In this document: positions 1 through 48,160 of the stretch, piece by piece | Position numbering within the stretch: position 1 is the first letter of the stretch | Layout of the letters: each line of letters begins with the position of its first letter | Sequence record: OR466728.1 | Source: Escherichia phage ES | Strand: one strand, 5' to 3' | DNA: 48,315 nt | The notes under the pieces: generated by a model | The model's input: the letters and a program-made list of their open reading frames with translations, nothing else | Told to the model about the DNA's origin: nothing | The model's database searches: none | Position numbers and translations under genes: made by a program

Positions 1-211
1 GATTAATGGGTCGTAGTTGCAAAAGTTGCACTCAAGAATTTATCGCGTCGGTTACTGCTAAGTCCTCAGAGGAAGCAGTAGCGAAAGTTAAGGTAATGTC
101 TGGTGCCGACCCGGATTACCACAAATTCCTAGTAGCTTACGTTCGTGAGCGAAAGTAAAAGAAGTTCTACTCTCTGTTTGTTTCATATCTCTCGTTGTTG
201 TTCGATACTTC

Positions 212-6337: not shown

Positions 6338-6390
6338 ATTGCCTTTTATCTGATAGAATGGTAATCACCACAAATAGTCAGGAGATTCAA

Positions 6391-7851
6391 ATGGAGTTAG
6401 TTGAAATCGCTTCAAATAGCTGCGAAGGACTTGAGGCAAAAGCGAAGGCTTTAATGCCATCATTTCAGCCTTATGACAGTATTATTCTGGTAGGTGACTT
6501 GCCAGTCAGGTGTTTAATGGCGTCTGGAACAGACCTAAGCATTACTGATATCAAGTTCCTAACTTTCGGTAGCCGAGCAAGGCTAATCACTGAAATTAAC
6601 AAGATGATTGCTGATGGTTGGGAGATTTTCGGCGAGCCAAAGGCTGACGCAAACAGATTTGGCACAATTATGACCAAAGGCTTTCAGGGCGCTAAGGGTA
6701 CGGCTGGTGTCGCTGGCCCGCAAGGTCCGCAGGGCGTTCAGGGTTTGCAGGGTCCAGAAGGCCCGCAAGGTCCAAAAGGTAATGATGGCGATGATGGTTC
6801 TCAAGGTGAGCGAGGACCACAAGGTCCGCAGGGTATCCGTGGCGAGCAAGGCGTTCAAGGTCCGCAGGGCATCCAGGGGCCAATCGGCTTAACTGGTGAT
6901 ACAGGTCAGCAGGGGCCAGCTGGTCCAACTGGTGCTACTGGTCCTCGTGGACCTCAAGGTGTGCAAGGTGAGGCTGGTCCTGCTGGCGCTACAGGTCTGG
7001 AATTTAAAGGCGCATGGGCTCCAGGTATCGAATACAAAGCAAACGACGCAGTGGCTTATAACGGTTCAACATGGTTTGCTGTGACTGGAAATACAGACGA
7101 GACACCAGGGACGGGAACATCATGGCAGGTAATGGCATCACAAGGTTCTCGCGGACCAGCCGGACCAGAAGGCCCGCAAGGTGATGTTGGCCCGCAAGGT
7201 GAGCAAGGAATTCAAGGACCAATCGGAGCAACTGGACCATCTGGACCTCAGGGCGCAAAAGGTGATACAGGAGACACTGGACCAGCAGGACCAGAAGGAC
7301 CACAAGGTTTAACTGGACCAGCCGGACCGCAAGGCATTCAAGGACCAGCTGGTGTTCGAGGTGCTACTGGTGCAACTGGTGTAAACGGAGCTAATGGCGC
7401 CACAGGACCGCAAGGGCCAGCTGGACCAAATGGTGATTCAGGTCTTAATTACACATATCAGAAATGGTCAAACGTAGCAAATGGCGTTGGGTATGTAACA
7501 ATCCCCGGGATGCCTAATACACAAATAGGAGTTAACAGGAATTCTGCCGGAGCAATTGTGTACACTCTCTATAGTACTGGTGGAACCGTTAGGTATCTTG
7601 ATTGGCGCGCTGAGATACCATCATATGATACAAATGCAATAACCACGGCTGCTGGCACGGCGACAACACCAAGCTCTGCTGGTGTAATAGCAACGATGAA
7701 TACCGTTTTATATAATGGGTTAAGATCAGTCAAATTTATAATTAAGGATTGGGGCGCATCAAGGATTGCTGTAATTGAATGTTACCAACACGGAAGGGCT
7801 AACTCAGACGCGAGGCCTGTTACTATCGAGATGCGCTCATTCTCTTACTAA
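6391..7851 (+). CDS. collagen-like (Gly-X-Y) repeat protein
   Basis: two long uninterrupted G-X-Y tracts (about 6679-6997 and 7141-7453) flanked by globular N- and C-terminal domains; RBS CAGGAG. Confidence 0.8.
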
Positions 7852-22527: not shown

Positions 22528-22772
22528 TATTTCCACTCCTTAGACCCGTGATCTGCAACTGAACCGCCATAACCTCCACCAGCCTTGCTCTCAATACCAG
22601 CGTAGCGCACATCAACTTCACCAGCCGGTACAATCACGCCACCTTTCCATTTAGCCACGCATACACCGTTTGCTTTCGTTGCACACCATCCGTCAGGACG
22701 CGGAGCAGAAGAGCAACCCACCATTATGATTGCTGCTGCTGCGATGATTGAAAGTTTGATTAAGTTAGTCAT
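22527..22772 (-). CDS. lipoprotein, candidate superinfection-exclusion (Llp/Cor-like)
   Basis: 81 aa from ATG 22772 (RBS AAGGAA); signal peptide with lipobox IMVGC; small Cys-containing mature protein. Confidence 0.5.
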
Positions 22773-22833
22773 TTTCGTATTCCTTGTGAGGTTCGTTTCG
22801 ATGGAGTAATCATACATCATCTATAATCTTTGT

Positions 22834-22851
22834 CTTTAGCAATTCGTGCTA
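22834..22851 (-). promoter_or_regulatory. dyad box copy 4 (minus strand TAGCACGAATTGCTAAAG)
   Basis: on minus strand followed by TATGAT at about 22 nt and CATCGAAAC; 62 nt upstream of lipoprotein ATG. Confidence 0.5.
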
Positions 22852-22910
22852 TTGGTTACGCGTAACCGATGTAACTCGATGTATACCATATGCATCCGCG
22901 GGAAATCGTA

Positions 22911-23000
22911 TACACCTATTTACGCCTCGATACGCCATAGTTACATTAAAATATCTATATATATCAACCCTTTACTCTTATTATTATTATTATATATATT
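22911..23000. repeat. control-region repeat block 1 (copy A) with (TA)n/(TTA)n microsatellite
   Basis: about 80% identical to 43029-43121 by eye, including ATATCTATATATATCAACC..TTTACT..ATTATTATTATTAT. Confidence 0.6.
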
Positions 23001-23143
23001 ACTGTGTATATCATGTAACTACTATTCTGTAGTGTTCCGGTTATAATTTTTATATCATGTGATTTTATACAGTATTGCGAGGCACCCATACCTATGCACC
23101 ATCCGCCAAGATCGGTATACACGATATACGCACCATTTACATT

Positions 23144-23197
23144 GAGCTATAGCTGGGCTCAGGCAGTGAAAAACGTAACCAATAGAAATGTCTACAC
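23144..23197. repeat. control-region repeat block 2 (copy A)
   Basis: AGCTATAGCTGGGCT...AAAACGTAACCAAT matches 43256-43308. Confidence 0.6.
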
Positions 23198-23317
23198 GTA
23201 GTTACGGATTTATACGCGTATACTTGATTAATTAATCGGTGATACCAATTGGACTGTGTGTCTTGCGTGCGGCATCATTACATCATCGAAATCACGCAAC
23301 CAAAGAGAGATAAAGAA

Positions 23318-23512
23318 ATGCCATACTTCATCATCAAAGAGAAAAACAACGCACTGTTCGACGACTGCTACTTTGGTGGCCCGGCTGGATACACAATTCA
23401 TAAATCTGAAGCCGATCGATTCGAGACTAAGGAAGAAGCTAAGTCTATTCTGACCGGATATTTCACTGAGGAAGATTTGAAAGCCGTTAAGATTGTTAAA
23501 GTTAAGGATTGA
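23318..23512 (+). CDS. hypothetical protein
   Basis: 64 aa from ATG 23318, RBS AAAGAGAGA, preceded by CATCGAAAT element. Confidence 0.5.
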   Translation: MPYFIIKEKNNALFDDCYFGGPAGYTIHKSEADRFETKEEAKSILTGYFTEEDLKAVKIVKVKD

Positions 23513-24487: not shown

Positions 24488-24968
24488 TTGATAAATTTAA
24501 TGATATCTTTAGATATGATGGTGAAAAGCTGTACTATAAAAACTGGGTAAACGGTAGAAGTAAGTCTCTTGGACTAGAGGCTGGTAGCAAACAGAATGGT
24601 TACTTGAAAGTTACAATTGGCGGCAGAAATTATAAAGTTCATAGAATTATATGGGAAATGGTTAATGGTGAAATACCTGATGGAATGGAATAGATCACAT
24701 AAATCACGTAAAGGATGATAATAGGATTGAGAATCTAAGGCTGGTAACTCACAAGGAAAACTCAAGAAATAGGAAAAAGAGGTCAGATAACTCTTCAGCA
24801 ACACAGGGCGTTTCTCTGCATAAGATTACAAGGAAGTGGCAATCTTATTGCTCTGATAATGATGGAAAAATTATGTACCTTGGATTATTTGAGGATATTA
24901 ATGATGCTATTGATGCTAGGGTTAAGTTCGCCTCACAATGTGACTTCCATGAGAATCATGGTAAATAG
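24484..24968 (+). pseudogene. HNH endonuclease, frameshifted (1-nt deficit near 24689-24691)
   Basis: N-part VHRIIWEMVNGEIPDGME in frame 1 and C-part IDHINHVKDDNRIENLRLVTHKENSRN in frame 0; paralogue of intact 41210-41707. Confidence 0.6.
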
Positions 24969-24983
24969 CAATAATTGCTAAAG
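24966..24983 (+). promoter_or_regulatory. dyad box copy 5 (TAGCAATAATTGCTAAAG)
   Basis: TAG is the stop of the HNH C-terminal frame; TATCAT about 22 nt downstream; ATG of 25039 is 73 nt downstream. Confidence 0.45.
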
Positions 24984-25038
24984 ACAAATCTTATAGGTGG
25001 GGTATCATTACCCCATAGAAACTAAAGAGAGATAGGTA

Positions 25039-28732: not shown

Positions 28733-28756
28733 TGTGTAAAGTCTCCATTTGTAAAA

Positions 28757-28774
28757 TAGCACGAATTGCTAAAG
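28757..28774 (+). promoter_or_regulatory. dyad box copy 6, orphan (plus orientation between two minus-strand genes)
   Basis: exact TAGCACGAATTGCTAAAG; no plus-strand gene or good -10 downstream; overlaps 5' leader of the tail fibre gene. Confidence 0.4.
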
Positions 28775-28797
28775 TTGATTGTAGCATCTTTGAGTCA

Positions 28798-29801: not shown

Positions 29802-30275
29802 TTACTCTTTAGCTTTTCGTGCTGCTTCGTTAGCGGCCTTAATCTTGCGCCATGATCGACACTCTGGCTTGGTGGCTAGCTCTGCTTCAGTAACTACGCG
29901 AAGCATATGACGCTTCTTACATCGAAGTGTTAGCGGCTTACCGTTTCCGTCGAATTGCAGGTCTGGTCGGCAGAACGTAGCTCGAAATCCTTCCTTATTT
30001 CTCTTATACGCATTGTGAGCTTTCTGCGCTCCTCGAGCCGAAATCATCCCGCGATCAAACCATTGCTCTACAGTCTGGTGAGATACGTTTAACTGCTTTG
30101 CGATGTTCGCCTTTGTTCCATAGAAATCAAGAACCATCTCCAGGCGAGCACGTAGCCCAGCCTTTACCTCATCTTTCAATACGTAGTAGCCTGACGGTCG
30201 TTTGCGTTGCTTCTTGTCTTGTGTGCGTACCGTTCCGTTATTGCCGTTAATAGTTCGTTTGTCAATTTCACACAT
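29802..30275 (-). CDS. HTH DNA-binding protein (candidate transcription regulator)
   Basis: 157 aa, basic, HTH-like GTKANIAKQLNVSHQTVEQWFDRG; RBS GAGG; a dyad box overlaps its 5' region. Confidence 0.5.
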   Translation of the reverse strand: MCEIDKRTINGNNGTVRTQDKKQRKRPSGYYVLKDEVKAGLRARLEMVLDFYGTKANIAKQLNVSHQTVEQWFDRGMISARGAQKAHNAYKRNKEGFRATFCRPDLQFDGNGKPLTLRCKKRHMLRVVTEAELATKPECRSWRKIKAANEAARKAKE

Positions 30276-30371: not shown

Positions 30372-33300
30372 ATGCTTCCAGTAGAGCGCTTAGTGGCAAA
30401 CTTTGATCAAGAGAAAATCAAACAGATTCAGAAAGATTACCAGTTTGGAGACATAACTCCTTACGAATTCCAGTGTGTAACATTTGACGCAATTGGTAAG
30501 GCTATTGGTAAGTACGAGGCTCCATTCATCGCAGACCTGTCTGTATCTGCTGGTAAAACAATAATTCTTGCCATGATTGGGAAAAGAATGGAGCAACTTG
30601 GACTTCCTTATATGGTACTGTCTCGCCAGTCAGAGATTATCAGCCAGAACGCAGAGGAACTCCGTAACTTCGGTATCCGTAATAGCGTCTATTGCGCTGG
30701 ACTTAACGTTAAATCAGTTTACTACCCAACCATAGTGGCTAGTGAGGGTACAGCTGCCAATGGCCTGTTTAAGGGGCTTGGTGACTATGTTCCTGCTGTT
30801 ATCGCGATAGATGAGTGCTTAACTGGAGACACGATGATAACCACCGATTCAGGGATGATGAGGATTGATAGCGAAGACCTTATCAATCATAAAATAAAAT
30901 GCATAAACGAAAGCACTGGTGATTACTTCTATCATAAGCCAAAAAGAGTTTTTACTAATGGTGTAAGACATGTATCATCAATTAAATTAGAAAGCGGAGA
31001 GGAAATAAAATGCACGAGTACACACAAACTTTATTCGAACGGCTGCTGGGTAGGAGCGGGAAAACTTCGTATTGGGATGAATCTGTCGCTAGACGGCTCG
31101 CAGGACAAATTTACGAAAAAGCTCCTGCGTGCAAGTGTGGCTGTGGTGAAAAAGTTATGCCGCATTCAAGCAAGGGGTTAGGCGTACTTCTTAAGAACCC
31201 TTTCGATTTCTATTTGGATTACAGAACGGGGCATCATAATTCAACCGTCAACCCATCAATGGAGGTTGATGACTTTTTACATCAAAACATTCTTGCGGCA
31301 ATGGCTGGTGATGGTTGCTTGATTAAAAATACAGAAAAAGGAACGCATAGGCTATCTTGGAATATGGGAAATAAGGAGCACGCACTAAGCAAGGTTGAAA
31401 GGTTTGCAAAACTAAACCCTAGATACAGGGAGAAGAAAAACCCTGGATTTGGCGACAACTGGTTTTGCGTATCAACATCATGTACGAAAGTTCTGGATTC
31501 ATATGCTGATAAGTACGGAAATTCTAAGGATGGTTACGATATTGGAAAGATATGCAGAGAGCTTGATCCAGTTGGTTGGGCTGCTTACTTTGGTGATGAT
31601 GGTCATTGCACTGTAAGCTCAGGGAAGAGGGTTGTAGAAATCCACACCGAATCATTTAGCAGGCGTGAAGTTCAATCAGTAGTTGATGCGCTAATAGCAT
31701 TTATTGCTAATGACGGAGTTAATGTTAGAAGCTATATTGGCGGCAAGAAAAAGAGAGAGCTTTACTCAGTATCAATAACAACGAGGTCGGCACAAGATGA
31801 GTTTTTTAAGAGAATTAGTAAGCACATGGAAAATGGCGTGGAATACAAAATCAAGCAAAATTAAAGACATCTCACCCATTGGCAAGGAACTTGTTTGGGA
31901 TATAGAGATGCCTGAGCACCATAATTTCATTGCTGACGGGGTCGTGGCACATAATTGCCACATGGTGGACCATATGGATATCGTAGAAGCTGAAGAGAAT
32001 GAGGAAACATTCGAGCAGATGAGCACGAAGAAGGGTGAGATGGTCTTTAAGGATGGTGTGAATACCGGGCTTCTTGGCACTGGTCGCGCGCAATACACGT
32101 TAATCATTACCGAAATGAAGCGTCGATGCAAGGAGAAGTACGGTCGCGAACTTCGTATCTTTGGGTTAACTGGTAGCCCGTACCGTAACAACGACCACAT
32201 TGTAGTTAGTAACCCAAATGTCCGTGGATTCTGGCGCAAAACTGTAATGCAAGTGCCAACCAGCTACCTTGTTGACTTGGGGTTCGTTGTTCCTACTGTC
32301 TACGGTGAAGTTGGTGATTTGGGCTACGACCTTAGTGAGTTCACTCCTGATGGAAGTGATGGGGTTAAGGACTTCAGCAAGAAAGAAATGGATGCGATGG
32401 CTGCAAAGATTCACGAAAACCAAACGATGACACAAAAGATAATGGGATTTGCTGCTAGGTTTATGGAAACAAGGAATGCTGCATTGGTAACTTGCGCTGG
32501 CAAACAGCATTGCGAGGAGGCGGCAGCCGCACTTCCAGAAGGTGTTACTTGGGCGATAGTTACCAACTCCACTGGTGATAAGAAGCGTAGAGAGATACTT
32601 GAGAAGGCAGCCAGCGGAGAATATAAGTTCATATTTCAGATTGGTTGCCTCACAACTGGCGTAAACTGCCCCCCGTGGGATACAAGCATTATCCTGAGGA
32701 AGGTTGGTAGCATTACTCTACTCATTCAGTTGCTTGGTCGTGGTATGCGTATCCTTAAGAAGAAGCACAAAGAAGCTGGAATGGTAAAAGATGACCATGT
32801 TGTTCTTGATTTTGCCGGGACGCTTGACGATATGGCAGAACTCTACTTCGACCCAATTATAGAAGAGGTTCAGGACCAGAAGTTTAAGTCATCCAGGAAA
32901 GGGGGTGATGAACCAAGAATTTGCCCAGCATGTTCTTATGAGAATTCTCCTTTCGCACGGCGCTGTAATAATGTGATTGACGGTAAACGATGCGAGCATT
33001 TTTTTCAGTTCCGTCTTTGCGAAGATATTGAGGACCCGCAGACGAAAGTTATCGTTAAGAAAGGTTGCGGAGAGAAAAATGACGTTGCAGCAAAGAACTG
33101 CCGCTGCTGCGGAGAGATGCTGATAGACCCAAATGCAAAGCTATCTGGAAAAATGTATCGGAAAGGGGACTGGTTGAGAGTTTATGACTTCAAGATTGGG
33201 TTGACAAAAAACCAGTCAGGGATCGTTGCTTCATATGAGGTAATGGCTCATAGTGGAGATAAGTTCCGAGCTTATGAAACATTCTTCCCGGAGTCAGACC

Positions 33301-33506
33301 ATCGTGTTTGTTCTGTCAAATGGAAGGCGTTTTGCTCAACTCACATCGAGAACAGGACTGAGGCTTTTAGGATTGGCAGATTGCGTAATGCTAAAATGAT
33401 TATGACAAATGCACATCTTTTCCGTGCGCCGCTAAGGATTACGCACCGCAAGAATCAGAAGTCGCAAGATATTATCGCCAACAAATCATTTACGATGGAG
33501 GATTGA
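30372..33506 (+). CDS. SF2 DExH-box DNA helicase, interrupted by an intein (exteins 30372-30815 and 31956-33506)
   Basis: Walker A SVSAGKT; motif II DE|CH restored on excision; three track ORFs (30372, 31010, 31797) belong to one gene. Confidence 0.75.
30816..31955 (+). mobile_element. intein with LAGLIDADG homing-endonuclease domain (1140 nt, 380 codons)
   Basis: starts CLTGDTMI, block B TSTHKL, LAGLIDADG-like ILAAMAGDGCL and AAYFGDDGHC, ends NFIADGVVAHN before +1 Cys; endonuclease domain is in a different frame. Confidence 0.8.
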
Positions 33507-33507
33507 T

Positions 33508-33927
33508 ATGAAAATCACAGACAAAGGTGATTACCTCGAGTTCTATGGCGGACCGGTGAAGTCATGCCCAAAGGAAGACGATGAACAAATCTTCTGCTCT
33601 GATTGGGTGAAATACAACTATCCGCAGATTGTTTACTGGCACACGATTAACGAAAATAAAAAGAGCATTGGTCAAGCAATAAAAGACCAAGCCAAGGGGC
33701 TTCTCAAAGGTGTGTCAGACTGCTTATTTCTGATACCTGAGTCATTGCGTGGCGGTTATCCATTTGGCGCCATAGAGTTAAAGAGGGCTGGTAAAACGCA
33801 AGCAAGCCCAGTTAGCAATGAGCAAAAGTCATTCCTAAAAAGCGTAAGGGAATCAGGCGGTTTCGCAGCGGTGGCTTATGGAAGAGAGGGTTTTCTTGCG
33901 GCATTCGCAGAGATGATAAGAAAATAG
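33508..33927 (+). CDS. VRR-NUC-like nuclease (putative)
   Basis: 139 aa; ...D...IELKRAGK... PD-(D/E)XK-like core; RBS GGAGG. Confidence 0.45.
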   Translation: MKITDKGDYLEFYGGPVKSCPKEDDEQIFCSDWVKYNYPQIVYWHTINENKKSIGQAIKDQAKGLLKGVSDCLFLIPESLRGGYPFGAIELKRAGKTQASPVSNEQKSFLKSVRESGGFAAVAYGREGFLAAFAEMIRK

Positions 33928-33942
33928 CACGAATTGCTAAAG
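33925..33942 (+). promoter_or_regulatory. dyad box copy 8 (TAGCACGAATTGCTAAAG)
   Basis: TAG is the stop of 33508-33927; TATTAT 22 nt downstream, then CATCGAAAC; ATG of 34006 is 81 nt downstream. Confidence 0.55.
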
Positions 33943-34005
33943 ACGAATTGGTGAGTTGGTGTATTATCAACTCATCGAAACGAAACAAAGAGAGAGATAA
34001 ATAAA

Positions 34006-34194
34006 ATGAAAGACATTATTACTAAAGAATCCCAAAGCTACTACGCCTCATACTATGAGACAGTTAATGGTTTTAAATTTATTGATATAGAGCAAGGTGG
34101 AAACGCCGTTACGCTAACTAGCGAAAAAGATTTAAATGACATGATTTCGTTCTTAGAAAAAGTGAAAGAGCATTTAAATAGCACGAATTGCTAA
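34006..34194 (+). CDS. hypothetical protein (C-terminus NSTNC)
   Basis: 62 aa, RBS AAAGAGAGAGA; last five codons are encoded by the next dyad box. Confidence 0.5.
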   Translation: MKDIITKESQSYYASYYETVNGFKFIDIEQGGNAVTLTSEKDLNDMISFLEKVKEHLNSTNC

Positions 34195-34196
34195 AG
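34179..34196 (+). promoter_or_regulatory. dyad box copy 9 (TAGCACGAATTGCTAAAG)
   Basis: lies inside the 3' end of 34006-34194; TATAGT 22 nt downstream, CATCGAAAC; ATG of 34256 is 77 nt downstream. Confidence 0.55.
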
Positions 34197-34255
34197 AGAT
34201 TTCGCAGGGACGCGATATAGTTACTCCATCGAAACAAAACGCAGAGAGAAAGAAA

Positions 34256-37207: not shown

Positions 37208-37762
37208 ATGAAAAAGTTAATCATCCTTAATGCACCCCCTGGTGCTGGAAAAGATACAGTTGCAGATATCATTGTTAATCTTGGAATTTGCAAGGATAAG
37301 GTTTCATTCAAGTCACCAATGTTTAATGTTGCAAAAGGAATACTATCAAGTGATGAGTTTGATGGATTTATTAATAATTACGATGACCGAGAGTACAAAG
37401 AATCACCACACGAATTTCTTGGTGGAATGACTGTTCGTGAATTTATGATTTGGATTAGCGAATCAGTTATGAAGCCAGTCTTTGGTGATGATGTTTTCGG
37501 CAAAAGGCTCACACAATCACTTGGTGATGGATGCTACATTTGTTCAGACGGTGGATTTGCGAGTGAAATCGAACCACTGATTGGCAACGGCGTTGAGGTT
37601 ACATTGATTAGGCTTCACAGGCCTGGTTATACTTTCGAAGGAGATAGTAGGTCATACCTTAGTTGCGTCTGCGCAAGAGAGATTGATGTTGATGTTATTG
37701 AAGGTGATATTAAAAGAACTACAGAAAAAGTAATTAGTGCAATCAATAGCACGAATTGCTAA
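37208..37762 (+). CDS. P-loop kinase (nucleotide or polynucleotide kinase-like)
   Basis: Walker A LNAPPGAGKDT at residues 6-16; 184 aa from ATG 37208 (RBS GGAG); ends NSTNC inside a dyad box. Confidence 0.55.
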   Translation: MKKLIILNAPPGAGKDTVADIIVNLGICKDKVSFKSPMFNVAKGILSSDEFDGFINNYDDREYKESPHEFLGGMTVREFMIWISESVMKPVFGDDVFGKRLTQSLGDGCYICSDGGFASEIEPLIGNGVEVTLIRLHRPGYTFEGDSRSYLSCVCAREIDVDVIEGDIKRTTEKVISAINSTNC

Positions 37763-37764
37763 AC
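37747..37764 (+). promoter_or_regulatory. dyad box copy 11 (TAGCACGAATTGCTAAAC)
   Basis: overlaps the last codons of 37208-37762; AATAAT about 23 nt downstream, CATCGAAAAC; ATG of 37821 is 74 nt downstream. Confidence 0.5.
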
Positions 37765-37820
37765 AATCACCTTAGAGATGCGGAATAATCAACACATCGA
37801 AAACAAGAGAGGATTCAAAA

Positions 37821-41212: not shown

Positions 41213-41707
41213 TTTGCCATGATTTGGGTGATAACCCAGCCTCACCTCTGCAACAATTCTTGCCTCACATGCAGAGATAAAGTCATCAAAAAAACCAAGG
41301 TGAACAGTCTTTCCACCACTCTGTATTGAGGCCCTCCACTTACCTGTTCTTTTGTATATGGCGACTCCAGTTACACCACTTTTATTATCAAACCTTAATG
41401 ATGAGTTCATTGAATTCACTTTTTGGGTAACAAGCCTTAGATTTTCAATCCTATTGTCACGCCTATTTCCATTTATGTGGTCTATGAATAGACAATCAGG
41501 TATGTCTCCATTAGTCATCTCCCATATAATTCTGTGAGCCATTGTGTAGCCGATTCCCTTATTGCTAACCCTAACGTACCCGCTTGTTGTAACCTCCGTG
41601 TTAACTGGCTTATTTGCATATTTTGTATTCCAAGATTGAGTTCTATCTGACCTCTCCTTTCTGTACAAAACTGAATCTTTTATATAAAAAATTTCATTCC
41701 AGTTCAT
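41210..41707 (-). CDS. HNH homing endonuclease
   Basis: AHRIIWEMTNGDIPDCLFIDHINGNRRDNRIENLRLVTQKVN; ATG 41707 overlaps upstream stop (ATGA). Confidence 0.7.
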   Translation of the reverse strand: MNWNEIFYIKDSVLYRKERSDRTQSWNTKYANKPVNTEVTTSGYVRVSNKGIGYTMAHRIIWEMTNGDIPDCLFIDHINGNRRDNRIENLRLVTQKVNSMNSSLRFDNKSGVTGVAIYKRTGKWRASIQSGGKTVHLGFFDDFISACEARIVAEVRLGYHPNHGK

Positions 41708-42530: not shown

Positions 42531-42716
42531 TTACCAGGGTAAACATTCGTCGCAGCCGAGGCCATCGCAGCACAGATAATAATCTTCTGACTGGAATTGC
42601 TTAGCCAGGTCGATATCGATGCGTCCGCGTAAAACCATATCAGTATAGTCACTGTTCAATCCAATCAGCGCACATTCCTGCTTTAATTGCTCAAATGCTT
42701 CGTCTTTAAGTTTCAT
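42531..42716 (-). CDS. hypothetical Cys-rich small protein
   Basis: 61 aa with CCDGLGCDEC near C-terminus; RBS GAGGAGAGGG. Confidence 0.45.
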   Translation of the reverse strand: MKLKDEAFEQLKQECALIGLNSDYTDMVLRGRIDIDLAKQFQSEDYYLCCDGLGCDECLPW

Positions 42717-42769
42717 ATCCCTCTCCTCGTTGTTGATGGATTCATTATGGCCTCGTCGCCAGTTTTTGT

Positions 42770-42787
42770 CATTAGCAAAAAGTGCTA
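42770..42787 (-). promoter_or_regulatory. dyad box copy 14 (minus strand TAGCACTTTTTGCTAATG)
   Basis: perfect TAGCA-N5-TGCTA dyad; CATAAT about 22-23 nt downstream on minus; 54 nt upstream of ATG 42716. Confidence 0.5.
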
Positions 42788-42807
42788 TTCGTTGGATTTA
42801 TCTATTG

Positions 42808-42899
42808 TTGCAGCTATTGCAATGATTATCATGATTATTGCACATATAGCAATATTGCATGGAATGCAATGATGTTTTTGATTGTTGCAGAATTTGCAA
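42808..42899. promoter_or_regulatory. array of four TTGCA-N5-TGCAA palindromic sites (operator- or iteron-like)
   Basis: sites at 42808-42822, 42838-42852 (imperfect), 42855-42869, 42885-42899; spacings 30/17/30 nt. Confidence 0.55.
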
Positions 42900-43028
42900 T
42901 GATTGATGTGGGGTGAATGAATAGTGGATGAACTACCATACAAGTTGATTTTGATTCTTGCTGAGCCAATTTGGATATACACGTTATCGAAGTTATGGTG
43001 TGTATATGAGGTGCGCTTCCGAAGAATC

Positions 43029-43121
43029 ATACACGCCTACCACGCGAGATTACGCAATGGTTACATAATAATATCTATATATATCAACCTTTTACTATAT
43101 TATTATTATTATTATATATAT
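43029..43121. repeat. control-region repeat block 1 (copy B) with (TAT)n microsatellite
   Basis: matches 22911-23000. Confidence 0.6.
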
Positions 43122-43255
43122 GTATGTATATGGTGTAGATTGGTCGTATGGATGGGTCGATAGTTTTTCTATGAAAACTACTAATTTTATCTATATAGAT
43201 ACATATGCATACCCCCGGCGAATCCGCGTAAAATCTTACACAGGGTAATTACACC

Positions 43256-43308
43256 AGCTATAGCTGGGCTGAGAGGTCAAAAAGCGTAACCAATGCAGAT
43301 ATAAACAC
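43256..43308. repeat. control-region repeat block 2 (copy B)
   Basis: matches 23144-23197 (AGCTATAGCTGGGCT...GCGTAACCAAT). Confidence 0.6.
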
Positions 43309-43388
43309 AACATAACACTTGATAACGCGTATATTCATGATACCATGGTTTCATCTTAACGAAGAGCAACCAATCAGGAGTAACGAAT

Positions 43389-43910
43389 ATGTCAGAACAT
43401 AAAGAAGCAGTAAGTTTGGGTGAAATCATTCGATACATGGCGAGTCAGGCGCTCAAGTCAGAAGACAAAGTGTGCACAGTCCCTGTGACCATGATTGCTC
43501 GTCAATACTTCGGCATGAGTCGTGAGACGTTCGTATCGCTAAGTGGTGAGGAGGTTCTACCTGGTGGTGAATACCACATGCCAAAACTAAAAGCGTCATA
43601 CGTTTCAAACACCGTAAGCCGAATGCCTGAGATTAAGGCGGCTGACGTGCGCTCAAGGTTCTCACTTAGTTTTACCGACTTTGAGGGCGAGAGTGAGACA
43701 TACTGCGCATCACTTAGCCTGGTTCCTGGCGCTGTAAAATCCGGCTCAAGAAGCAAAGCAGAGCAAGAGAAGGAGGCGGCTACCATTGAAAGGTTCAAGG
43801 CTCGATTGTTGAAACTATCACCAAGCGTCGCTGGTCTTGAAGGTGATGAACTTAAGGGTGCAGTATCAATGATTAACGCATACCAGGAAATGATTAAGGA
43901 GACTAAATAG
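43389..43910 (+). CDS. hypothetical protein (first gene of early region)
   Basis: 173-aa ORF, RBS CAGGAG. Confidence 0.5.
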   Translation: MSEHKEAVSLGEIIRYMASQALKSEDKVCTVPVTMIARQYFGMSRETFVSLSGEEVLPGGEYHMPKLKASYVSNTVSRMPEIKAADVRSRFSLSFTDFEGESETYCASLSLVPGAVKSGSRSKAEQEKEAATIERFKARLLKLSPSVAGLEGDELKGAVSMINAYQEMIKETK

Positions 43911-45059: not shown

Positions 45060-45202
45060 TTTACATTCACACTTACTATACAGGAAAGTTTAACAGCGTT
45101 AAGCACGTGCGTGTGCATGAAACATACGAATCGGCACATAGTCAGCTTAGAGTTCTTGGTGGAACAATTACAATGTGTGAAATTGTTGAAGAATACAGAT
45201 AG
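45056..45202 (+). CDS. hypothetical small protein
   Basis: 48-aa ORF, ATGA overlap; its TAG stop is the first triplet of a dyad box. Confidence 0.35.
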   Translation: MIYIHTYYTGKFNSVKHVRVHETYESAHSQLRVLGGTITMCEIVEEYR

Positions 45203-45217
45203 CACGAATTGCTAAAC
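45200..45217 (+). promoter_or_regulatory. dyad box copy 17 (TAGCACGAATTGCTAAAC)
   Basis: CATAAT 22 nt downstream, CATCGACAAC; spacer hairpin GCCGGAGTAATCCGGC; ATG of 45275 is 75 nt downstream. Confidence 0.55.
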
Positions 45218-45274
45218 AATCGCCGGAGTAATCCGGCATAATTACTACATCGACAACGAACGAGTAAATGAAGA

Positions 45275-47675: not shown

Positions 47676-47751
47676 GTTCTGCTGGCGTAACAGGATAACG
47701 CAAAGACCTCCTAAGTCTTAGTTACTGGTTCGAGTCCAGTGCGGAACACCA
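47676..47751 (+). tRNA. tRNA-Arg (anticodon CCT)
   Basis: hand-folded cloverleaf: 7-bp acceptor GTTCTGC/GCGGAAC, D-arm GCGT/ACGC with GG loop, anticodon loop CTCCTAA, T-arm ACTGG-TTCGAGT-CCAGT, discriminator A, encoded CCA. Confidence 0.8.
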
Positions 47752-47782: not shown

Positions 47783-47995
47783 ATGAAAAAAGTAACAATC
47801 ATCGTAAAAGATATTGAAAGCGGCACTTCCCAAAAATTCAACGCAACACTTGACCGTGAACATAAATGCTTAAAGGGTGTGATTGGCGGGGTTTCAGTTA
47901 GCGCGGATATTAAAGGTTATCTCGAGCTTGAAAGAGAAATTCAAAACTATAGCAATCAGAGCGGGAAGATAAAAAATGCAGCTCTGGGATGTTAA
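47783..47995 (+). CDS. hypothetical protein
   Basis: 70-aa ORF, RBS GGGGGA; last gene before the junction with position 1. Confidence 0.45.
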   Translation: MKKVTIIVKDIESGTSQKFNATLDREHKCLKGVIGGVSVSADIKGYLELEREIQNYSNQSGKIKNAALGC

Positions 47996-48004
47996 GCTTT
48001 CAAT

Positions 48005-48160
48005 CTGCTTCCTCTGAGGACTTAGCAGTAACCGACGCGATAAATTCTTGAGTGCAACTTTTGCAACTACGACCCATTAATCGGATTGAAAGCTTAACAT
48101 CCCAGAGCTGCATTTTTTATCTTCCCGCTCTGATTGCTATAGTTTTGAATTTCTCTTTCA
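48005..48160. other. 156-nt fold-back: reverse complement of the end-to-start junction (probable assembly artefact)
   Basis: 48005-48082 is the exact reverse complement of 1-78; 48083-48160 is the reverse complement of 47929-48004 plus CC. Confidence 0.7.

Follow-up and report, generated by a model that had tools for sequence, protein, structure and literature searches.

A duplicated, conserved cis-acting module in a T1-like Escherichia phage combines origin-type anatomy with divergent promoter-like sites

Two homologous non-coding regions lie about 20 kb apart in the DNA of Escherichia phage ES (record OR466728.1), here a stretch of 48,315 nucleotides (the window, called AN in comparisons with relatives). 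Region 1 covers positions 22854-23318 and its homolog, region 2, approximately 42950-43388. We find that they carry a real and strongly conserved duplicated cis-acting module of ~370 nt per copy, with an anatomy of a known kind (that of an origin and/or an operator). Tentatively, and judging from sequence, we read the two copies as a pair of origin-type modules (iterons, a site for the host protein IHF and an unwinding element) joined to divergent early promoters. The phage is a relative of T1, one of the classic T phages. The module has probably not been described before, an earlier mention in the T1 or Rtp genome papers being possible.

A first-pass annotation of the window had proposed two homologous control regions that share two blocks in the same orientation. 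Both claims hold, with the blocks at the proposed places and also in the same order, and can be extended: the regions are collinear homologs well beyond the two blocks (over ~400 nt in a global alignment), the homology spans the whole module, and it is kept in both places across the Drexlerviridae. Block A is ~84% identical between the regions over 89 columns, with a local alignment score of 107 against 23.0 ± 2.8 (maximum 36) for 500 dinucleotide shuffles; for block B the score is 47 against 17.8 ± 2.5 (maximum 30). The distance from block A to block B is 214 nt in region 1 and 205 nt in region 2. The similarity exceeds that of low-complexity AT-rich DNA, with the unique strings ATATCTATATATATCAACC and AGCTATAGCTGGGCT common to both regions. 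The proposed start of region 2 (42900) has to be revised, as the non-coding stretch begins at 42717 and its left 200 nt, holding a promoter and a separate palindrome cluster, had been omitted. The gene map agrees with the expected context: each region has minus-strand genes on its left and plus-strand genes on its right, and the replication, recombination and lysis block (with the exonuclease VIII, Erf, primase, helicase, holin and endolysin genes) is bracketed by the two regions.

The pair is old and has been retained. Rtp, G8 and IME542 have both copies at the same two genome positions, and the paired layout of T1, TLS and orkinos is that of AN. In an alignment of 17 copies (11 of region 1 and 6 of region 2, from Rtpvirus, Guelphvirus, Christensenvirus, Loudonvirus, Nouzillyvirus and unclassified Braunvirinae), sharp footprints alternate with spacers that vary. 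Between genera (Rtp, G8, EC3a and IME542) the identity of block A of region 1 is ~95%, compared with ~80% for the 801 nt around it, and block A is more conserved than the neighbouring genes. The length of the (TTA)5(TA)4 tract, which had been suggested as a possible source of variation, is almost fixed in region 1 (identical in 10 of the 11 copies) and varies by a few nucleotides in region 2. The suggestion that the direct repeats serve as recombination substrates finds no support: neither a deletion nor an inversion between the copies was seen in any relative examined, and a deletion would take out the replication and lysis genes.

Given this conservation we attach hardly any credence to the view that the regions are a functionless duplication relic, low-complexity AT-rich DNA, or a small protein or RNA gene. 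The microsatellites are indeed of low complexity, and hypothetical proteins are annotated over region 1 in some records; against this, block A is better conserved than the adjacent genes and the shared blocks are unique. Some relatives have an open reading frame (ORF) across block A, but it is interrupted in AN, TR2 and IME542 and no region-2 copy has it, so the regions lack plausible coding, as first supposed, and a search for coding conserved among the relatives across block A found none. The covariance models of Rfam 15, run at gathering and permissive thresholds, gave no region-1 match reaching an E value of 1, and in region 2 only matches at chance level (E 0.5-0.6) lying outside the module.

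Each copy consists of two arrays of short direct repeats (TACRY) on either side of a centre with an exact IHF consensus and an extremely AT-rich tract, framed by palindromes at the edges (Table 1). The density of TACRC is 21 per kb in the two regions against 3 per kb genome-wide, which makes them the densest windows of the genome. Pairs of TACRY phased at 10-11 nt occur seven times in the whole window, and six of the seven are located in the two regions; helically phased repeats in one orientation, as in an iteron-type origin, are therefore present. Columns of the first array of region 1 are conserved or near-invariant in the alignment, and TATACACGATATAC in its second array is invariant in all 11 region-1 copies. 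The exact IHF consensus has four matches in the window (both strands), two of which occupy the equivalent position in block A of both regions; the core ATCAACC is identical in 11 of 11 region-1 copies. A second conserved short element is found in both copies between the edge palindrome and the first array (22896-22901 in region 1). It reads TCCGCGGAAA (palindromic) in Braunvirinae, including region 2 of Rtp and G8, and TCCGGCGTA in Tempevirinae (the TLS and orkinos regions).

Table 1. Positions of the features of both regions, their promoters and the candidate binding proteins in the window
Feature	Position	Strand	Remarks
Leftward promoter, region 1	22792..22853	-	Has the 21-nt AATAGCACGAATTGCTAAAG repeat of the genome-wide family; 74-82% match, inverted, to promoters of the plus-strand family
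Left edge palindrome GGTTACGCGTAACC, region 1	22854..22867		Two inverted TACGC half-sites; TAC.CGT.A columns conserved in 17 copies
Array 1, region 1	22911..22946	+	Four direct TACRY: TACAC 22911, TACGC 22921, TACGC 22931, TACAT 22942; spacing 10, 10 and 11 nt
Block A, region 1	22931..23017	+	Most conserved stretch of region 1
Exact IHF consensus (WATCAANNNNTTR), region 1	22962..22974	+	TATCAACCCTTTA; preceded by an A/T tract
(TTA)5(TA)4 tract, region 1	22978..23000		Candidate DNA unwinding element; second least stable duplex stretch of the genome
Array 2, region 1	23118..23142	+	TACAC 23118, TACGC 23127, TACAT 23138
Block B, region 1	23145..23197	+	Palindrome AGCTATAGCT, then GGGCT, then CGTAACC at 23174
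Right edge palindrome TATACGCGTATA, region 1	23211..23222		AC.CGTA columns conserved
Rightward promoter, region 1 (putative)	23249..23278	+	TTGGAC, 18 nt, CATCAT; from alignment and sequence, missed by a simple scan
Cro-like helix-turn-helix protein	29802..30275	-	Second candidate reader; adjoins the primase gene; homolog of T1 gp23 and Rtp52; sub-threshold P22_Cro and HTH hits
Leftward promoter, region 2	42744..42789	-	21-nt repeat, AATAGCACTTTTTGCTAATG on the minus strand; ATGACA, 17 nt, CATAAT (10/12 matches)
TTGCA-N5-TGCAA palindrome cluster	42808..42899		Three palindromes (42808, 42855, 42885); left of the duplicated module, absent from region 1
Left edge imperfect palindrome ATATACACGTTATC, region 2	42975..42988		From sequence and the 17-copy alignment
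Array 1, region 2	43030..43066	+	TACAC 43030, CACGC 43040, TACGC 43051, TACAT 43062
Block A, region 2	43051..43137	+	From alignment with region 1
Exact IHF consensus, region 2	43082..43094	+	TATCAACCTTTTA; consensus match
(TTA)5(TA)4 tract, region 2	43100..43121		Least stable duplex stretch of the whole genome
Array 2, region 2	43237..43254	+	TACAC at 43237 and 43250
Block B, region 2	43256..43308	+	AGCTATAGCTGGGCT, then CGTAACC at 43285
Rightward promoter, region 2	43319..43346	+	TTGATA, 16 nt, TACCAT; TG upstream of the -10
DUF7174 protein	43389..43910	+	First gene right of region 2, 173 aa; Pfam PF23796, E 2e-47; candidate reader of the TACRC repeats

The tracts next to these repeats are extreme in computed duplex stability. 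In a nearest-neighbour free energy profile of the whole genome, the tract reaches -35.1 kcal/mol per 40 bp in region 2 and -37.6 kcal/mol in region 1, against a genome mean of -53.9 (standard deviation 3.9). The same profile was calculated for AN, Rtp, G8, T1 and TLS (five complete genomes, three subfamilies) and for orkinos. Whether measured over 40 or 80 bp, the two least stable stretches in each of the six are the two AT tracts, ~4-5 standard deviations from the genome mean. These extremes persist in T1 and the Tempevirinae, where the sequences can no longer be aligned with AN. A low-stability AT-rich element beside the repeats, as known from iteron origins, is thus found in both copies by computation.

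Two recent genome papers state that an origin of replication has yet to be found in the T1-like phages, and they list the regulation of this group as an open question (PMC11447400, PMC7718038). It is this gap, together with the list of origin-type parts, that makes us favour the origin-type reading. The two copies would be the replication origins of the phage, or one origin and an enhancer copy, within the two divergent early-promoter regions. According to this scheme a sequence-specific protein encoded by the phage would recognise the phased direct TACRC repeats flanking the centre, and its dimer would bind the inverted TACRC palindromes of the edges. Host IHF would bend the DNA at the consensus site beside the first array, after which the (TTA)5(TA)4 tract may open for loading of the phage helicase and primase.

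Several known systems resemble parts of this arrangement. Iteron-type plasmid origins (pSC101, F, R6K) have phased direct repeats beside an AT-rich unwinding element with an IHF site and, next to these, a gene for a small DNA-binding protein with inverted half-repeats in its promoter. The modules share the phased repeats and the unwinding-prone tract, and they have candidate counterparts of the IHF site (an exact consensus in both AN copies) and of the inverted half-repeats (in the promoter of the adjacent DUF7174 gene; see below). They differ in belonging to a lytic phage, in being present twice at a distance of 20 kb, in lacking a DnaA box and in having repeat cores of 5-7 nt. The satellite phage P4 replicates with two separated cis regions, ori and crr, that carry the same repeats, and two distant regions with common short repeats are also what we observe. 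The primase of the T1 family is annotated as related to the P4 alpha primase, but here it has 307 aa and is encoded apart from the helicases; at that length it is presumably too short to include the binding domain of the alpha type. Moreover, each copy has its own AT-rich tract and promoters, unlike in P4. The T7 primary origin and T4 oriF and oriG consist of a promoter followed by an AT-rich element. They share with the modules an easily melted AT tract beside promoter-like sequence in an early region, and more than one origin per genome is possible. Nonetheless, these origins are not known to have phased repeat arrays or an IHF site, both of which are found here, and the promoter in block A is a consensus match only that is not kept in copy 2.

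A number of observations weigh against an origin. No perfect DnaA box was found in the regions (near-matches are weakly enriched), and the GC skew of the window follows the direction of transcription and carries no replication signal. The modules are not adjacent to the primase and helicase genes, and many region-2 copies have only a degenerate IHF site (such as AACAACCATTTA in Rtp and G8). Binding, melting and initiation of replication at the modules are what we infer from sequence, and co-regulation of early promoters is an at least equally simple reason for having two copies at the heads of divergent operons.

The latter explanation, in which the modules serve early transcription alone, is nearly as likely as the one we lean towards. 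It holds that the arrays are operators for a phage regulator which, together with IHF, turns the divergent early promoters at both regions on or off, much as in the arrangements of lambda Cro or of the Mu repressor and IHF; the regulator would be made early from the region 2 promoter, the AT tract would be an UP element or promoter DNA, and there would be two copies because two early promoter regions need the same control. As far as consensus matches can tell, outward-facing sigma-70 sites are present at all four edges of the two regions, as in a divergent promoter region. A TACRC palindrome lies inside the rightward promoter of region 2 in every relative examined: in AN it is TAACGCGTA (43323-43331), in an operator-like position, and all region-2 copies keep TTGATA or TTGACT, ~16 nt and TAnnAT with an ACRYGT palindrome after the -35. 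The operon headed by this promoter begins with the gene of the candidate reader. Furthermore, block A of region 1 has TTTACT, 18 nt and TATATT after an A/T tract in all region-1 copies, with TATAAT on the opposite strand, and other annotators have placed promoters there.

What speaks against purely early control is the tract of 80 bp, which as the least stable DNA in three subfamilies far exceeds the needs of a promoter. The hexamers and spacing in block A are not kept in the region-2 copies, which have either a tract longer by 2-5 nt or no -10; this variation in length argues that the tract is not merely a promoter spacer. In addition, the putative regulator sites coincide with promoters only in part: the rightward promoter of region 2 is overlapped and the left palindrome of region 1 abuts a promoter, whereas the arrays are 100-300 nt away from the edge promoters. 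The Mu early operator and lambda pL/pR are divergent promoters with multiple sites for one phage regulator, in Mu with an IHF site between the operators. The likeness consists of a divergent promoter region with repeated candidate regulator sites (and, for Mu, IHF). These regions nevertheless occur once per genome and are not known to have an extreme AT microsatellite, while the repeats described here are mostly direct, helically phased and away from the promoters.

The origin-type and early-operator readings are not exclusive, given that a promoter and an AT-rich element occur together in the origins of T7 and T4. The first-pass annotation had offered early-promoter or origin regions as alternatives. 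Its promoter part is supported by the sites at both edges and its origin part as anatomy (phased repeats, IHF consensus and least stable duplex), the two being almost equally likely.

The identity of the repeats changes with the lineage. Words enriched in both regions are TACGCG, TACACG and TTACGC in Braunvirinae, and the single region-2 copy read from Rogunavirinae (AHP42) has the same repeats. In T1 they are GTTACA, TGTAAC and TAACAC, and in TLS GTTCAC, TGGAAC and AGAACA (the GTTCAC/GGAACA class); the regions of orkinos have similar GAACA/GTTCAC words by eye, though these are not ranked in its enrichment table. The copies within one genome are significantly alike (z 15-44), whereas orthologs across subfamilies are barely so (z 2-12). 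A repeat word that varies among subfamilies, and yet is common to both copies of a genome, argues for a phage-encoded reader that has co-evolved with both copies rather than for a fixed host protein.

For the same reason we consider it improbable that the repeats are sites for a host protein, either low-affinity DnaA arrays or a regulator of the OmpR/CpxR type on 10-bp direct repeats. The string GTATACACG agrees with the DnaA box in 7 of 9 positions, DnaA boxes with one mismatch are ~3.5-fold enriched (n=5), and the 10-bp phasing of GTTACA and TTTAC repeats is reminiscent of OmpR and CpxR sites. However, the word changes among subfamilies that all infect E. coli and yet stays the same in both copies of a genome, which a fixed host protein would not predict.

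The best candidate for the reader, albeit a weak one, is the DUF7174 protein. Its gene is the first beside copy 2 in AN, Rtp, G8 and TLS (the match in T1 is weak), and homologs are confined to T1-like phages, with none in the 72,556 plasmids searched. Searches by sequence against the chains of the PDB found nothing, fold matches to RepE and Pi were not significant, and there is no significant similarity to Rep proteins. The AlphaFold model has a mean predicted local distance difference test (pLDDT) score of 77.5 (~90 for residues 10-113) and consists of helices, a long beta-hairpin and a helical hairpin; DUF7174 would differ from iteron Rep proteins in having one winged-helix-like domain. The invariant residues S70, Y71, N74, T75 and R78 are all located on one helix. 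This helix reads SY(V/I)xNTxxR where the repeats are TACRC, SYxRTIxNR in TLS and orkinos, and SFITPIVSR in T1, so it is constant within a repeat class and different between classes, of which there are only three. In 12 of 12 testable loci the DUF7174 start codon is preceded, at a distance of 291-340 nt, by the least stable 40-mer, and TACRC is enriched there; as this set has the first helix type by construction, it tests constancy and not covariation of helix and repeat. If DUF7174 is the binder, its promoter may be autoregulated as in iteron plasmids, because the right-edge palindrome of copy 2 sits inside it.

The Cro-like helix-turn-helix protein was considered as the repeat reader and ranked lower, since its recognition helix differs between phages with the same repeats.

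It is conceivable, though doubtful, that T1-like phages replicate from a paralogous pair of origins, or from one origin with a distant enhancer copy, each recognised by a winged-helix-like initiator of the hitherto uncharacterised DUF7174 family that co-evolves with the repeats. If true, this would be the first identification of a replication origin and initiator in Drexlerviridae. For the missing origin of the T1 family we provide two precise conserved candidate sites, a repeat code that changes by subfamily and a named candidate binder; together these open the start of replication, or the switch of early transcription, to standard experiments.

To the left of the module in region 2 lies a different element, the cluster of three TTGCA-N5-TGCAA palindromes. 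Nucleotide 1 of T1, which is the start of its annotated terminal repeat of 2800 bp, falls in the homologous cluster, and several records, including Rtp, start or end within ~100 nt of it. As T1 nucleotide 1 maps there and region 1 has no such cluster, it is probably the pac site and distinct from the duplicated module. These data bear directly on whether the shared module itself is a packaging signal, that is, a pac or terminase recognition region. P1 pac has four plus three repeats and depends on IHF, and the layout of the module (four repeats, an IHF site with an AT-rich centre, three repeats) resembles it; moreover, region 2 is at the start position of T1-like genomes. We regard a packaging role as very improbable all the same: the genome end of T1 falls outside the module, the cluster that marks it is absent from region 1, and the single annotated terminal repeat of T1 does not suggest two pac sites 20 kb apart. 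Separating the probable pac from the module helps in setting genome start positions and in phage engineering.

The leftward promoter of region 1 heads the genes for the Cor lipoprotein and a membrane protein. Its rightward counterpart has TATAGT as the -10 in relatives, a TTGG-N5-CCAA palindrome just upstream and a leader of the family type (CATCGAAA...GAGAG). At this promoter (23226-23254) a different palindrome (ATTGGCGAAACCAAT in relatives) replaces the usual TAGCA-N5-TGCTA; it may resemble the operator pattern of E. coli PdhR and the GntR family. The usual palindrome belongs to the 21-nt repeat AATAGCACGAATTGCTAAAG, in which TAGCA-N5-TGCTA overlaps a TTGCTA -35 element. At least 18 promoter-associated copies are present in the window, always oriented with transcription (for example 2887-2910, 24963-24986, 28754-28777, 33922-33945, 34176-34199, 37744-37767 and 45197-45220, and on the minus strand at 22834, 29807, 41195, 42153 and 42770). 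The same repeat has been described in TLS, its function being listed as an open question (PMC11447400). This T1-like intergenic repeat, given as aaATAGCACnnnTTGnTAAAA (PMC11447400), is present at the leftward promoter of both regions; it is nonetheless a different element from the duplicated module, as it occurs at 18 or more promoters throughout the genome.

The window matches Escherichia phage AN_ECEAS (PP944860.1; Drexlerviridae, Braunvirinae), identical (100%) over both query regions and 99.99-100% identical overall, except for an inverted stretch at the end of the window. Here the window (1-78 and 47929-48160) has an inverted copy of nearby sequence: 47992-48160 aligns with the GenBank record in the reverse direction, and 48005-48082 is the complement of 1-78. 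The pattern suggests an assembly artefact of the fold-back type and not biology. The gene order is that of T1 and Rtp. On the plus strand small early genes, the terminase and structural genes are followed by the short minus-strand Cor lipoprotein operon (ending at 22772), then by the genes for recombination, replication and lysis, by a second minus-strand operon, whose end is at 42716, and by further small genes on the plus strand, starting at 43389. A tRNA scan of the window found only a tRNA-Arg (anticodon CCT, 47676-47751), located among the small early genes, a feature also reported from other T1-like phages. Immediately to the left of region 1 several relatives (EC3a, G8, TR2, AugustePiccard and ESCO41) have an extra minus-strand gene, annotated as DNA-binding, anti-repressor, KilA or Rha (loci L003 647-1294, L006 4782-5435, L008 1-275, L010 1-320 and L015 1-699), which AN_ECEAS lacks.

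Three further coding features were observed. The replicative helicase gene, which in Rtp53 is uninterrupted (664 aa), is interrupted in the window (30372-33506): an ORF at 30372-31181 has a weak intein (Hint) match, an ORF in another frame (31010-31864) is a LAGLIDADG endonuclease, and the helicase resumes at 31797-33506. The inserted sequence is intein- or intron-like, or a frameshifted insertion of that kind. Sequences at 24639-24765 and 41410-41537 are 80-86% complementary in inverted orientation and lie inside two HNH endonuclease genes, which appear to be paralogous homing-endonuclease genes. Finally, long collagen-like G-X-Y repeat arrays (6685-7444) are found within an ORF of 497 aa (6358-7851) that is annotated as a putative tail fiber protein.

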